The notes below the pieces were generated by a model, which searched no databases, was not told where the DNA came from, and saw only the letters and a program-made list of their open reading frames with translations. The translations under genes were made by a program, and so were the position numbers. Shown here one piece after another: positions 1-54,557 of a stretch of DNA of 54,557 nt (position 1 is the first letter of the stretch; each line of letters begins with the position of its first letter). This stretch comes from Escherichia phage mEp044. Location: sequence record PP180004. One strand, 5' to 3'.

Positions 1-60
1 ATTTTTCATTAAGTTACCCATTCAAAAGATAAGTAGGTAGCTCCATTTCTATCATTTCAT

Positions 61-128
61 ATCGTGTCACATCGTCACCGTTTCGCGTTGATTTAAAAAG
101 AAATATTTATTCTATCGTGTCACATCGT
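61..128. repeat. two exact direct copies of atcgtgtcacatcgt (61-75, 114-128) plus a partial third (cacatcgtgt, 131-140); candidate integrase arm-type or int-regulatory repeats
   Basis: exact repeat read directly upstream of int. Confidence 0.4.
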
Positions 129-160
129 TCCACATCGTGTTACTATCCATGCGTAAAATG

Positions 161-184
161 TGTGTACCAAATAGTGACCAAAAT
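161..184. repeat. left copy of 24-bp direct repeat tgtgtaccaaatagtgaccaaaat; candidate att core (attL), ends 2 nt before the int ATG
   Basis: identical 24-mer at 54487-54510 with different flanks. Confidence 0.55.
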
Positions 185-185
185 T

Positions 186-1385
186 ATGCTTACAGATACC
201 AAATTACGAAACATTCACGGCAAGCCATACGACGGCCCGAAAGAAGTACCGGACGCGGGCGGATTGTCTGTCAGGATAAGCCCGCGAGGAGTTATATCTT
301 TCCAGTATCGCTACCGATTCAACGGCAAGCCTAGACGGATGAAGATTGGCACATACGGAGAAATAACACTTAAAGAAGCGCGTGCGGCGGTGGCGGAGCA
401 TAAGGAAGTTCTAAACTCAGGTCGAGATCCATCGGTAGCAAAAAGAATGCACCTTTCCCGCATTACGACACGGGCAACGGTTGAGGATATTGTAAGGGAG
501 TACATGGAATCGCCGCAGGCAAGGAACATGGTCAATTATAAGCAGGTTGAGGCCATGCTAGATAAGCACGTCATAAAACCATACGGTAGCTATATCGTCG
601 ATGATATGGACGCTATGATGTGGGAGGGGGTTTTTAGAAAGGTAGCTAATGGTGGTGCACCAGTTCAGGCAGGTATAGTTCTCAACAGAATGAAGGCCGT
701 AATAAAATACGCCATTCGCCGCCGCCGCGTTGATCGTGACGACATATCATTACTGTGCGTTAAAGACGTTGGCAAAAAACCAGCGCAAGGCAAGCGCGTT
801 TTGTCAATACAGGAGATCCACCATCTAATTAGCCTTGTAGACAGTTCAAAAATGGCGAGGCTGAATCAGATATTGATGAAGCTGATTATATTTACCGGGT
901 GCAGGACAAGCGAACTGACAAACGCAAGGCGCGAGCATTTCGATCTTGATAGCTGTGTGTGGACGGTTCCGGGTGCATTAAGTAAGAACAGGAATGAGTT
1001 TAAACGCGGCTTATCCGACGTTAGCGTGGCTTTATTGCGTGAGGCTATGGATCTGCATAGCTTTGATTTTGTCTTCGTTCCTGTGCTTTCTGGAAGGGAT
1101 GTTGCGGTGGACAGAAGTGTGCCGAAAACAGCAGCGAGGGATTTAATGATGAGGATGGGCGGCGAGCCGTGGTCGTGTCACGATCTACGCCGCACCGTGA
1201 GGACAAACCTTTCAGCGCTTGGCGTTGCGCCTCACGTCGCAGAAAAGGTTTTGGGGCATAGGCTGGCGGGGATGTTGGCTATATACGATCAGTATGACTA
1301 TGTGAGGGAACAAATAGAGGCGATGAATAAGCTGGCTGATTATTACATGAAGCCCATTGATTTACAAAATGAAATAACATCCTGA
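186..1385 (+). CDS. int: tyrosine integrase (phage integrase family)
   Basis: ORF 117-1385 with likely start at ATG 186; C-terminal HDLRRT and LAIYDQY catalytic-region motifs typical of tyrosine recombinases. Confidence 0.9.
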   Translation: MLTDTKLRNIHGKPYDGPKEVPDAGGLSVRISPRGVISFQYRYRFNGKPRRMKIGTYGEITLKEARAAVAEHKEVLNSGRDPSVAKRMHLSRITTRATVEDIVREYMESPQARNMVNYKQVEAMLDKHVIKPYGSYIVDDMDAMMWEGVFRKVANGGAPVQAGIVLNRMKAVIKYAIRRRRVDRDDISLLCVKDVGKKPAQGKRVLSIQEIHHLISLVDSSKMARLNQILMKLIIFTGCRTSELTNARREHFDLDSCVWTVPGALSKNRNEFKRGLSDVSVALLREAMDLHSFDFVFVPVLSGRDVAVDRSVPKTAARDLMMRMGGEPWSCHDLRRTVRTNLSALGVAPHVAEKVLGHRLAGMLAIYDQYDYVREQIEAMNKLADYYMKPIDLQNEITS

Positions 1386-1561
1386 TAACGGTAAAGATAA
1401 CCGCCGCGCTTTAATGCTGGCATCCCCTTAACGGGTTCAGGGAATGGAGTACCTGAATCCTTCCACTTCTTAACCAGTTTAAAAAACGCCGACTTACTAA
1501 TCCCGCCCAACATTTTTTGCACTTGCTCGCGATTAATGAGTATTGTGCCGATCTTATCCAT
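1343..1561 (-). CDS. xis: AlpA/Xis-like helix-turn-helix excisionase or regulator
   Basis: 72 aa, convergent with int; AlpA-like motif FPEPVK...YLYRYQDV. Confidence 0.6.
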   Translation of the reverse strand: MDKIGTILINREQVQKMLGGISKSAFFKLVKKWKDSGTPFPEPVKGMPALKRGGYLYRYQDVISFCKSMGFM

Positions 1562-8194: not shown

Positions 8195-9187
8195 TCAAAG
8201 AGCGCCAGCGCGTGTATCACGTAGCGTTTTTGGTTTAAGCAGGAAATCAAGTGTCGCAGTGAAGCCATCGCCGAAGTAAAAATCTGAAGCCTTGTTTTTG
8301 AATGCTTCGAAGTAGGCGATAAATCCGTTAATGCTTTTGTCTTTCAGGTAGTCAGTGAACGCATAGATCTTGCGTTCAAGATCCCGATCAAGTTCGGCAG
8401 GTGGCAACAGGCCATCAAACGTGATGTTAAATTCTTCCACCACGTCGGCAGCGTTTGCAGTAGCTGATAGCTTTCGCCATTGTTCAGCATCAGCCAGATA
8501 CCCATCAAACTTAGTTGCCCGGCAAATGTTAACAGGCTTAGGTGTTCCACCACGGCTACGCCATTGCGTTAAAGCCCACTCAATCACTAATGTGATCTCA
8601 TCCTCAGTATACGCTTTACGTGTTTTTGTTTCTGTCAGTAGTTCGATGAACGGTTTTGCATCACGACATTTGCATCCTGCCTTGTCGTTGTAAAAGGCCA
8701 GGCAACGCAATGCAGCCAGATTAACCTCCCGATCTTCTTCGCTGATAGACTCGTCTTTTTCCAATACACGAAGTGTATTGTTTTTAATGTTCTCTTTACT
8801 GGTTATATATGACTGGTTAGGGTGACTCTGTGTCACTACCCCCGGTGACTCTGTGTCACTACCCTGGTGACTCTGTGTCACTACCCCCGGTGTCACAGTG
8901 ACACTACCATGTAATGACGGGAGGACTATTACATAGAAATTACTAGTTTGCTCTTTTCCTCCGATTAAGTATCTTGGTTGTTTAATCAACAACCCTTTTT
9001 CACAAAGTGAGTCTACAGCCCTCATAGCTGTTCTTTTACTGATCTCACACTCCTTTGCTATGTGATGGTAAGAAGGGTAACACTCGCCGTTATCATTAGC
9101 GTTGTCAGCTAACTTTAACAGCACAAGTTTGTGCATTGGGTCGCCGACCTCAGTATGGAAGACCTCTACCATTAGCCGCATACTCAT
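8195..9187 (-). CDS. replication initiator with N-terminal HTH domain (lambda O-like role); contains the ori iterons
   Basis: 330 aa; N-terminal HTH; internal iteron array as in lambda O. Confidence 0.7.
   Translation of the reverse strand: MSMRLMVEVFHTEVGDPMHKLVLLKLADNANDNGECYPSYHHIAKECEISKRTAMRAVDSLCEKGLLIKQPRYLIGGKEQTSNFYVIVLPSLHGSVTVTPGVVTQSHQGSDTESPGVVTQSHPNQSYITSKENIKNNTLRVLEKDESISEEDREVNLAALRCLAFYNDKAGCKCRDAKPFIELLTETKTRKAYTEDEITLVIEWALTQWRSRGGTPKPVNICRATKFDGYLADAEQWRKLSATANAADVVEEFNITFDGLLPPAELDRDLERKIYAFTDYLKDKSINGFIAYFEAFKNKASDFYFGDGFTATLDFLLKPKTLRDTRAGAL
8821..8908. repeat. origin iterons: three direct copies of about 20 bp (ggtgactctgtgtcactacc) followed by an inverted variant, then an AT-rich stretch (8909-8950)
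   Basis: read directly; lies inside the initiator gene (encodes the VTQSH peptide repeats). Confidence 0.7.
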
Positions 9188-51864: not shown

Positions 51865-54429
51865 ATGATTTACACAACTGGAACAATTGCCATCAACGGC
51901 AACACTGTTAAAGGCACGGGAACAGACTTTTCCGCGCCGCTTTCTCTCATTCGTGTAGGGTGCACGCTCATTGCTATCAGCAACCCCATCCAGATCTTTA
52001 CCGTTACTGAAATCAAGAGCGGCACTGAACTATCAGTGACGCCAGCGGCTAACCCTGCAATTGCTGCCGGGACAAAATTCAGTATTCTACTTTCTGACTC
52101 GATCTCAGTTGATGGGCTTGCCCAGGATGTAGCAGAAACGCTTCGTTTTTATCAGGAAAAAGAAGATGAAATAACAAGCGCAATAGATGGCAGCAATATT
52201 GGCTTGGGGCCAGAGCCGCGAGATTGCACCGATATATCAGGCGATCCGTCTTCTTACGTTGGCTTTTTGCGCATAAAGGAAACGGCTAAGGGTTTTCCTT
52301 CTGTAGCGGCTGGTGAATCATTTTTGAGTGGATTCATCTGTCAACGAGATGTCACGCCTTCATATACAGGCGTCTTTGTCGGTTGGGCTACGCGATCACT
52401 TTATACTTATACATGGGTAGCCACATCAGGTCCGCAATGGACACGCAACGCAAGAAAAGATGAAGTTGACAGGCTTGTCCAAAGAACAGGAGAAACGCGC
52501 GTATGCTCTCAAAACGCAAATAAATTCCTTACTGTCTATGATTCTGGATCGTGGGGTTATTACGATTCAGAGGCCAGCAAATGGCTACCGCTTCCAATTC
52601 TTGCTGGCGGCACTGGCGCAACATCGCTTGATGATGCAAAAAAAAATCTTCAGATCCCTGAAGGCGGTCTATCAAAAACGATAACCATAAGCGCCCCATC
52701 AGGTATGGAAGATGGAAAATACTATCCTATAATCGTGTTTACTGGTGAAACAAACGGAGGAGCTTTTCCGTGTCCGGTTGAAATTGTAACTGTTGGCGGA
52801 CCTTCCACCTCAGAAATGAACAGCAATACATTTTCTGGTTATGTCAGATGCGGTGGATGGTCAGACATCAGAAATATAGCGTATGGGTACTATACTGCAT
52901 ACGAACCAAAAGAGGTTGCTATACTTTGCATTAAGGGATCAACCAAAGACTACGCTCAACATATAGCTTTTTATGTAAGCAATAAAGCGTTTCCAATTAA
53001 AATCCAAGTAGGATATAAAGCGCAAGTATTCGTGCCCACTAGTGATTATTCTTTGGGAACAAACGGGGTAAAATTCAAATTTGGCGTGTCAACATCAGAA
53101 GAGGGTAACACAGAAAACAGCGTTACTAATATACTTGATTTTACTGGTGGCCAATCAGGTTTTTACAGTAACGCATTATTCAGGCAAGGATACTCAACAA
53201 ATTTTGCGCTTACTAATAAATTAAACTCAACAGATCCGTTTATTGTTACGCTGCCGTCATTCACAGTTTTAGGGTCTATTAATTGCACTAAAGGACTTAT
53301 TGCATATGGCGAGGACGTAACCAACAGGACATTTGTATCACGGCGCACCAATGCAGCAGCCAATGAGACGCTTGATCAGTCAGAGTTCAGGGCAGCAGAA
53401 AAAGCCGCGCAAATTGTTGTTCGTGACATGACTGCATCAAACCATATGTTTTTTAATTTTAATGGTGATGGTACTTTTAATGCACCAGGAGGTCTTGTAT
53501 CACAGACTGGCACTGACTGGAACGGTCAGCAGTCAGATAACATAAACAGGTTTAAGCCGATTGCTGGTCAAATAAATACACCGGAAAATAATGTTGTTTA
53601 TGGCGGTTTTCATGTCGGTTTTAGCGGCAACTACGCAACCCAGTTCGCTGGGCGCAATTCAAAATTCTACGCCAGAAGTTTTGAGGCAGGAGTAGACAAA
53701 GGATGGTGTCAGCTTGCAACGCTTAACAATGAGCTTGTGCAAAGGTGGACGGGATACCAACAATTTAAATCAACGGATTTTTTTGCTGATACTTTCACAA
53801 GAAAAATAACTCTAGCCGTCTCAAATTCATCGGCAAGAAATGCCGAGCTTTATTTGTGGGGCGCTGAAAACCGTCCCACCGTACTTGAGTTCAAGATAAA
53901 GGATCCAGACACAGGTAGTGGGCTTTCATGGGCTTTTTACGCACAGCAAAACCAGGATGATTCATGCCAATTTAATGTTAACGGTGCTGTAAACTGCACA
54001 ACAGTTAACCAGTCATCTGACCGCGACTTGAAAGACAACATTCAGGTTATAGGTGACGCAACTGAAGCCATCCGTAAAATGAACGGGTACACTTATACCC
54101 TCAAGGAAAACGGCCTGCCTTACGCTGGCGTTATCGCTCAGGAGGTCATGGAGGCACTGCCGGAAGCTGTGGGGTCGTTTACTCATTACGGTAAAGCATT
54201 GCAAGGACCGACCATTGACGGCAACGAGCTACGCGAAGAAACGCGTTATCTCAATGTTGACTACGCCGCAGTAACTGGTTTACTTGTCCAGGTTGCACGA
54301 GAAACGGATAACCGCGTCACCGAACTGGAAGAAGAAAACGCAAGCCTACGCGCTAACATTGCCGCAATGGATGAGCGTATCGCAAAACTTGAAGCGCTTG
54401 TCAGTAAGTTGACAGAAGGCGAAAAATAA
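51865..54429 (+). CDS. tail fibre/tailspike with C-terminal intramolecular-chaperone (peptidase S74) domain
   Basis: 854 aa; C-terminal SSDRDLKDNIQ ... LNVDYAAVTGLLVQ and coiled-coil end typical of S74 autoproteolytic chaperone domains. Confidence 0.75.
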   Translation: MIYTTGTIAINGNTVKGTGTDFSAPLSLIRVGCTLIAISNPIQIFTVTEIKSGTELSVTPAANPAIAAGTKFSILLSDSISVDGLAQDVAETLRFYQEKEDEITSAIDGSNIGLGPEPRDCTDISGDPSSYVGFLRIKETAKGFPSVAAGESFLSGFICQRDVTPSYTGVFVGWATRSLYTYTWVATSGPQWTRNARKDEVDRLVQRTGETRVCSQNANKFLTVYDSGSWGYYDSEASKWLPLPILAGGTGATSLDDAKKNLQIPEGGLSKTITISAPSGMEDGKYYPIIVFTGETNGGAFPCPVEIVTVGGPSTSEMNSNTFSGYVRCGGWSDIRNIAYGYYTAYEPKEVAILCIKGSTKDYAQHIAFYVSNKAFPIKIQVGYKAQVFVPTSDYSLGTNGVKFKFGVSTSEEGNTENSVTNILDFTGGQSGFYSNALFRQGYSTNFALTNKLNSTDPFIVTLPSFTVLGSINCTKGLIAYGEDVTNRTFVSRRTNAAANETLDQSEFRAAEKAAQIVVRDMTASNHMFFNFNGDGTFNAPGGLVSQTGTDWNGQQSDNINRFKPIAGQINTPENNVVYGGFHVGFSGNYATQFAGRNSKFYARSFEAGVDKGWCQLATLNNELVQRWTGYQQFKSTDFFADTFTRKITLAVSNSSARNAELYLWGAENRPTVLEFKIKDPDTGSGLSWAFYAQQNQDDSCQFNVNGAVNCTTVNQSSDRDLKDNIQVIGDATEAIRKMNGYTYTLKENGLPYAGVIAQEVMEALPEAVGSFTHYGKALQGPTIDGNELREETRYLNVDYAAVTGLLVQVARETDNRVTELEEENASLRANIAAMDERIAKLEALVSKLTEGEK

Positions 54430-54460
54430 GAGGTGATGTGCGAAGAACATCGCCACGCGA

Positions 54461-54487
54461 AACGAGGCTAACGCCTCGTTTCTTTTT
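54461..54487 (+). terminator. rho-independent terminator after the tail fibre gene, abutting the right 24-bp repeat
   Basis: 8-bp stem aacgaggc/gcctcgtt followed by a T-run. Confidence 0.7.
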
Positions 54488-54510
54488 GTGTACCAAATAG
54501 TGACCAAAAT
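54487..54510. repeat. right copy of 24-bp direct repeat tgtgtaccaaatagtgaccaaaat; candidate att core (attR)
   Basis: identical to 161-184 with different flanks. Confidence 0.55.
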
Positions 54511-54557
54511 GATAAATCAAAAACAAAAACAAAGCATAACACATTGAATACAAATTA

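Follow-up and report, generated by a model that had tools for sequence, protein, structure and literature searches.

The window, by which is meant the whole 54,557-nt stretch of the Escherichia phage mEp044 record (PP180004) analyzed here, carries an integrase gene, int, at one end and a tail fiber gene followed by an intrinsic terminator at the other (Table 1). The 24-bp sequence TGTGTACCAAATAGTGACCAAAAT occurs exactly on the + strand near each end, giving two copies in the whole window, and no third copy was found in it when up to 3 mismatches were allowed. Across 100 dinucleotide-preserving shuffles, 0 chance matches to the 24-mer were returned. Identity between the copies ends at both edges (g at 160 versus t at 54486; t at 185 versus g at 54511), and each copy is built of two tandem 12-bp units, TGTGTACCAAAT and AGTGACCAAAAT. 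The first-pass annotation, which was made from the sequence alone, had described an exact 24-bp direct repeat with differing flanks near both ends, and this description holds. The same is true of the left copy, said to lie 2 nt before the int ATG, which ends at 184 and is separated by the single base T185 from the ATG at 186, and of the right copy, said to adjoin the tail fiber terminator, which begins on the final T of the terminator T-run. A 15-bp direct repeat, also reported to the left of the int-proximal copy, was recovered as ATCGTGTCACATCGT, exact at 61-75 and 114-128, and a further copy with 2 mismatches lies at 124-138 (0.11 expected).

Table 1. Features at the two ends of the window, listed from its first base; P and P' denote the arms of the attachment site
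Feature	Position	Strand	Basis or remark
P-arm spacer part 2, phage DNA rather than host flank	1..13	+	Contiguity; differs from host left of attB
Core region	14..40	+	Crossover block AAAAGATAAGT (24-34), identical to attB in abgT; 13 lysogen breaks, att-site comparison
Inner repeat cluster A, candidate RDF sites	47..75	+	Three 10-bp-phased units, consensus (T/G)TCAYATCGT
Inner repeat cluster B, candidate RDF sites	110..138	+	Three units in 10-bp phase, same consensus; 63 bp from cluster A
TAAAAT, −10-like hexamer, possible int promoter element	154..159	+	Read from sequence; directly upstream of P' 24-mer
P'-arm 24-mer, candidate arm-type Int sites, possible int operator	161..184	+	Repeat and position; 137 bp after core start
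int, heterobivalent tyrosine integrase, 399 aa	186..1385	+	Pfam, PHROG 1 and PDB matches; transcribed away from core
72-aa HTH ORF, candidate RDF, last gene of leftward early operon	1343..1561	−	phrog_4745 'DNA binding protein'
Tail fiber operon intrinsic terminator, left attP boundary	54459..54487	+	Terminator scan; kept in four integrase types
P-arm 24-mer, candidate arm-type Int sites	54487..54510	+	Exact repeat; ends 70 bp before core
P-arm spacer part 1, A-rich	54511..54557	+	Runs into window 1-13 across artificial record break

The terminator lies downstream of the tail fiber ORF (51865-54429) and consists of a 10-pair hairpin, GAAACGAGGC-TAAC-GCCTCGTTTC, at 54459-54482 plus the T-run. 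Two consecutive hairpins in fact follow the tail fiber gene within 54431-54487, GGTGATGT...ACATCGCC and then the terminator, and both were kept in the four integrase types compared below despite differing 3' ends of the tail fiber gene. At the other end of the window, Pfam identified the domains Arm-DNA-bind_3, Phage_int_M and Phage_integrase in the Int sequence. The first of these (PF13356; residues 2-87; E = 1.3e-20) matched the N-domains of CP4-like integrases (PDB 3jtz and 3ju0). The 72-aa helix-turn-helix (HTH) ORF is convergent with int and shares 43 bp with its 3' end. Pfam and NCBIfam searches with this ORF gave no match, leaving PHROG as the source of support, and the homologue in phage mEp021 weakly matched phrog_66 'excisionase'. 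The HTH proteins of integrase types I and II are 46% identical, and type III carries a homologue of 77 aa. On the strength of these matches, the 72-aa HTH protein is likely to be the excisionase, or recombination directionality factor (RDF).

Over its left 2.5 kb the window shares 93 to 94% identity with Escherichia phages mEp010 and mEp013 as deposited in GenBank. Base 2 of the window aligns to base 2 or 3 of those records, and its right end aligns to their very last bases; the window is therefore a sibling phage record cut at the same place. Six mEp_immI phages were published together, and mEp010, mEp013 and mEp044 were assigned a type II integrase (PMC11893012). The record of phage MagusPhagus is opened elsewhere, and there window positions 53515-54555 and 4-2035 map to adjacent positions 9103 and 9097, in an unbroken sequence that runs through the tail fiber terminator, a 24-mer, 207 bp, a second 24-mer and int. 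Five IMG/VR contigs recovered via their integrase showed the same terminator, 24-mer, 24-mer, int arrangement as MagusPhagus, and a pattern scan of IMG/VR identified 12 contigs carrying both copies, 231 or 241 bp apart. For mEp021, PCR over the record ends with CsCl-purified virion DNA as template yielded the expected product (PMC11893012). Given the contiguity in MagusPhagus and the IMG/VR contigs together with the mEp021 PCR, the last and first bases of the window join inside attP. The window is thus the complete genome of a temperate coliphage; it belongs to the mEp_immI group, encodes a type II integrase and is written in prophage gene order. The record opens inside attP, where 23 bp precede the real core, and host DNA is present at neither end.

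To locate the core, the joined junction was searched against 5,426 complete E. coli genomes. None of the 5,426 carried it intact, and in 13 genomes it was split into two pieces, always at query positions 255/256, which correspond to window 23/24. The core of the window is AAAAGATAAGTAGGTA (24-39), that is, AAAAGATAAGT followed by AGGTA; its first 11 bases are those of attB, and 14 of the 16 match overall. Read directly, the sequence common to attP, attL, attR and attB is AAAAGATAAG(T/C)GGATA, from the 3' end of abgT (Table 2). The empty ogt-abgT locus of strain 7/2 contains the core as AAAAGATAAGTGGATA and gave no match to the 24-mer. There attB lies 82 to 97 bp from the 3' end of abgT, adjoining ogt, in agreement with the published assignment of abgT as the target of the type II integrase (PMC11893012). 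A tRNA gene was also considered as the target, but an ARAGORN search of the window was negative for tRNA and tmRNA genes; the target is a protein gene.

Table 2. Occupied and empty attachment sites at the abgT locus
Site	Sequence
attL	...CCATACCACC AAAAAGATAAGCGGATA ACGCCATTTC...
attR	...GTTATCCATTC AAAAGATAAGCGGATA GGGCAAGAC...
Empty attB, strain 7/2	...CCATACCACC AAAAAGATAAGTGGATA GGGCAAAAC...

An imperfect inverted pair, TTACCC (14-19) and AGGTAG (35-40), flanks the crossover block and provides candidate core-type sites; in relatives the pair around the core is perfect (TTATCC...GGATAA). Among type II phages the left half of the core, CCATTCAAAAGATAA, is invariant. The right half varies and reads GTAGGTA, GCGGATA or ACGGATA, with the GTGGATA of attB being intermediate. 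Invariance of the left half and variability of the right point to the AAAAGATAA block as the sole site of strand exchange. Integration cuts 27 C-terminal residues from AbgT, and a phage-supplied TGA comes directly after the core, so that the shortened protein ends in PYPLIF. This stop lies at window 20-26 on the − strand, across attR, and the end of abgT is not restored.

Once joined, attP spans 54487 to 184, approximately 255 bp, with the terminator, attP and int contiguous. The two 24-mers are its outermost elements, the P copy ending 70 bp before the core and the P' copy adjoining the start of int, and the 24-mer is the sole repeat to occur on both arms. No match to the integration host factor (IHF) consensus WATCAANNNNTTR was found in the 417-bp attP region, 24-mers included. 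Searches of 185,579 species-representative genomes with the 24-mer pattern returned 4 single matches in unrelated taxa, which is about the chance level for 19 specified bases; because these matches do not exceed chance, the element is, as judged from sequence searches, restricted to the mEp_immI phage group. A third site, ATACCAAAT, was noted at 197-205 inside int and was rejected, as it reflects the conserved codons for LTDTKLR and is not kept as DNA in types I and III. Two contigs from one metagenome, UViG_3300045988_076816 and UViG_3300045988_064823, show an exact deletion of the 231 bp between the 24-mers (1467-1503 in both contigs). In these a single 24-mer joins the terminator directly to the int ATG, the core and inner repeats are gone, and int is intact (96 to 97% identity). 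The deletion represents either repeat-mediated loss of attP, giving a nonintegrating variant, or assembly collapse.

The attP regions of the other integrase types were rebuilt from phage records and lysogens, using mEp021 for type Ib, Ecol_244 at dgcM/ydaM for type Ia and LSU61 at mppA for type III. The mapped targets abgT, dgcM/ydaM and mppA are each described as lying approximately 7 kb from the others (PMC11893012). In all four types, one 24-bp bipartite element follows the terminator immediately and a second lies shortly before int (Table 3), and the geometry was the same across the four types and three mapped chromosomal targets, with 67 to 70 bp from the end of the P copy to the core and 231 to 241 bp from the start of the P copy to the start of the P' copy. 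The motif changes in concert on the two arms, types I and II having TGTGTACCAAAT...GACCAAA on both and type III GTGTACCATATT on both. When the P' arms of types I and II are compared, strings of 10 nt or more are shared only at the two 24-mer halves; the remainder is unalignable, and the P' copy of mEp021 is 22/24 identical within unalignable surroundings. Conservation of the P copy between types I and II could come in part from a module boundary to its right, which leaves the conservation of the P' copy unexplained.

Table 3. The 24-bp element on the two attP arms in four integrase types
Integrase type	P copy	P' copy
II (window)	TGTGTACCAAATAGTGACCAAAAT	TGTGTACCAAATAGTGACCAAAAT
Ib	TGTGTACCAAATAGAGACCAAATA	TGTGTACCAAATCGTGACCAAAAA
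Ia	TGTGTACCAAATAGTGACCAAATA	TGTGTACCAAAACGTGACCAAAAA
III	TGTGCACCATTATGTGTACCATAT	TGTGTACCATATTGTGCGCCAAAT

Within type II, eight intact attP sequences were compared. Variable columns numbered 2/24 in the P copy and 1/24 in the P' copy (an indel in the A-run), and made up 35% of the P spacer, 33% of the core region and 16 to 17% of the remaining P' arm; the 24-mers are the least variable noncoding DNA of attP (4 to 8% variable columns). In the type III lysogen LSU61, an E. coli O157:H7 strain, the phage arm at attR supplies a new ATG and a hydrophobic N terminus in frame with mppA, and the PGAP annotation places the mppA start inside phage DNA. The type III phage thus appears to replace the signal-peptide region of MppA rather than to inactivate the gene.

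Over the four Int types, 45 of 87 residues (52%) are invariant in the arm domain versus 92 of 312 (29%) in the rest of the protein, and a conserved integrase N terminus has been noted before (PMC11893012). Among relatives, the 24-mer motif and its distance from the core are conserved, in parallel with the arm domain and not with the catalytic domain. Since the 24-mers occur on both arms, are conserved and are paired with a conserved arm domain, they are candidate arm-type Int sites, and the reading most likely from these sequence comparisons is that the Arm-DNA-bind_3 domain of Int binds them as tandem arm-type sites.

The inner repeats of the P' arm behave differently in the comparison. They are type specific, with ATCCGTTC in type Ib, TCCGTACAAT in type Ia and GCGTAAAC in type III replacing the ATCGT units of the window, and in none of the four types was a P-arm counterpart found. 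The first-pass annotation had regarded the 160 bp to the left of the int-proximal copy as possible phage DNA bearing arm-type integrase sites; the DNA is phage DNA, and the ATCGT repeats within it would fit better as RDF sites than as arm-type sites. The assignment to the RDF was inferred because the repeats are confined to one arm, are type specific and are paired with a divergent small HTH protein.

In the mechanism proposed from these features, the N-terminal Arm-DNA-bind_3 domain of Int would bind the 24-mers on both arms while the C-terminal domains of the same protomers bind the core, folding attP into an intasome for integration. The core (24-34, extended 14-40) would then recombine with the matching sequence in host abgT, and excision would use the same intasome plus the small HTH protein as RDF.

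As int points away from the core and has a strong terminator upstream, its promoter would be expected inside the P' arm. Scans of window 1-400 and of the contiguous MagusPhagus attP gave no consensus σ70 promoter upstream of int. The TAAAAT hexamer is invariant in type II, and ATAAAAT (type Ib) and ATAAAAA (type Ia) occupy the equivalent place; relative to TAAAAT, cluster B (110-138) covers the −35 position. The type II int has no Shine-Dalgarno sequence, and the 24-mer reaches to one base before the ATG, whereas types I and III keep GAGGTG, GGGGGTG or AAGGGGG upstream of int. The A-run between the repeat and the int ATG (window 179-188) has 3 to 5 A residues among relatives, and the int start of mEp010 is annotated at 150 because the length of this run moves ATG149 and GTG117 in or out of frame. 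ATG186 is the sole int start that is in frame in all relatives. Int bound at the P' 24-mer, between TAAAAT and the ATG, might repress int. In KplE1, the intS promoter has its −10 and −35 elements overlapped by arm-type P' and RDF sites and is repressed by both proteins (PMC2951348), and by analogy int autorepression may operate through the P' copy. Taken jointly, a phage genome cut in attP, 24-mers serving as Int arm sites, the HTH protein as RDF and possible int autorepression make up an account that is favored with moderate confidence.

The first-pass annotation had leaned toward another explanation, in which an integrated prophage of about 54.3 kb has the 24-mers as its att core, duplicated at attL and attR, so that the outer 160 bp and 47 bp would be host DNA. 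Two exact direct copies near the window ends with different flanks, and an integrase at one end with a tail fiber at the other, are what such a prophage would present. The outer flanks are nevertheless contiguous with each other in free phage genomes and are unlike the host sequence around attB, the 13 E. coli lysogens break at window 23/24 and at neither 24-mer, and each 24-mer lies 70 to 137 bp inside the real phage-host junction. The empty attB in abgT, where this explanation calls for a single 24-mer, holds AAAAGATAAGTGGATA and no 24-mer. The prophage explanation is refuted, and it is the annotation's fallback, a phage genome record with both copies in attP, that is borne out by the contiguous flanks of MagusPhagus and the 12 IMG/VR contigs. 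That the repeat is a duplication without function, whether a recombination scar, an assembly artifact or terminal redundancy, is very improbable. The two IMG/VR contigs with a single 24-mer do indicate that recombination or assembly collapse between copies is possible, but neither copy is terminal, as 160 bp and 47 bp of unrelated sequence separate them from the two record ends. The copies occur in independent isolates, lysogens and metagenomes, and are conserved in position and sequence over four integrase types while the neighboring DNA has diverged.

An unlikely explanation, though one of some substance, is that another factor (the HTH RDF or a host architectural protein) binds the 24-mers and that the ATCGT repeats are the true Int arm sites. 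The inner repeats covary with integrase type, and their tandem 10-bp phasing recalls that of the λ arm sites P'1 to P'3, which are likewise tandem and phased at 10 bp. Against this, the inner repeats are confined to the P' arm, and heterobivalent integrases of the λ paradigm require arm sites on both arms. From type I to type II the candidate RDF keeps only 46% identity, yet the 24-mer is conserved at 22/24, its conserved partner is the Int arm domain, and the 24-mer lacks the IHF consensus. Three further candidates were rejected. A direct repeat at the termini of a linear record, or an overlap left by its assembly, does not fit copies that are internal with distal DNA that is not duplicated; a repressor operator was set aside when no other 24-mer (up to 3 mismatches) or GTGNACCAWWW was found in the genome, immunity region included; and sib-like RNA pairing of the copies is incompatible with repeats that are direct rather than inverted and with a P copy at or beyond the terminator.

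The integration state of the record is settled as a free phage genome opened in attP; taking the 24-bp repeats as prophage borders would set both ends 70 to 137 bp inside the true borders. A map of attP can be offered, comprising the core, two candidate arm-site pairs, two candidate RDF-site clusters and a candidate RDF gene, for a group of coliphages frequent in the human gut. In its main text, the publication describing these phages covers core motifs and integrase types and mentions no arm repeats, arm-type sites or excisionase (PMC11893012). It is conceivable, if rather doubtful, that the 24-mer pair is an arm cassette independent of integrase type, being near identical on both arms across four core specificities. 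If so, one arm-recognition system would be retained during retargeting, and what is swapped would be limited to the core and its inner P' repeats, the RDF, and the portion of Int that binds the core and performs catalysis. The direct repeats would also provide a built-in substrate for precise deletion of the core, of the kind present in the two IMG/VR contigs with a single 24-mer, leading to nonintegrating variants.

The attP architecture itself is standard for heterobivalent tyrosine integrases, and the process is textbook site-specific recombination. The Int/Vis system of satellite P4 has an integrase of the same family (P4/CP4-like, Arm-DNA-bind_3) and a small HTH RDF. As PMC2951348 reports from Piazzolla et al. 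2006, P4 Int binds near its own transcription start in attP and represses int. Neither the P4 sites nor the tRNA-Leu target is related by sequence to its counterpart here; in the window, regulation of int is suggested by position.

With λ, the window shares an attP of ~240 to 255 bp, sites on both arms (candidates in the window), a short core common to attB and tandem P' sites. The related phages λ and HK022 retain their arm sites and differ in core specificity. Unlike the Int of the window, λ Int belongs to another arm-binding fold and family (Pfam Phage_int_SAM/Arm-DNA-bind_1 types) and recognizes another motif. The λ int gene is transcribed towards attP under the control of pI/pL and sib rather than from inside attP, whereas int of the window is transcribed away from it.

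The KplE1 system differs in its target, which is a tRNA gene and not the 3' end of abgT, and in its P' sites, which share TAAA where the candidate arm motif here is GTGTACCAAA-like. Promoter overlap and repression are known in KplE1 and extend to the window as a positional analogy only. The IntS-TorI systems of KplE1 (CPS-53), HK620 and Sf6 are otherwise alike in having a P4-family integrase transcribed away from the att site (PMC2951348). The int-proximal arm (attL in the lysogen), in which P' and RDF sites lie over the int promoter, may be arranged in the same way here, and in KplE1, as with the candidate RDF gene of the window, the RDF gene is transcribed separately from int (PMC2951348).
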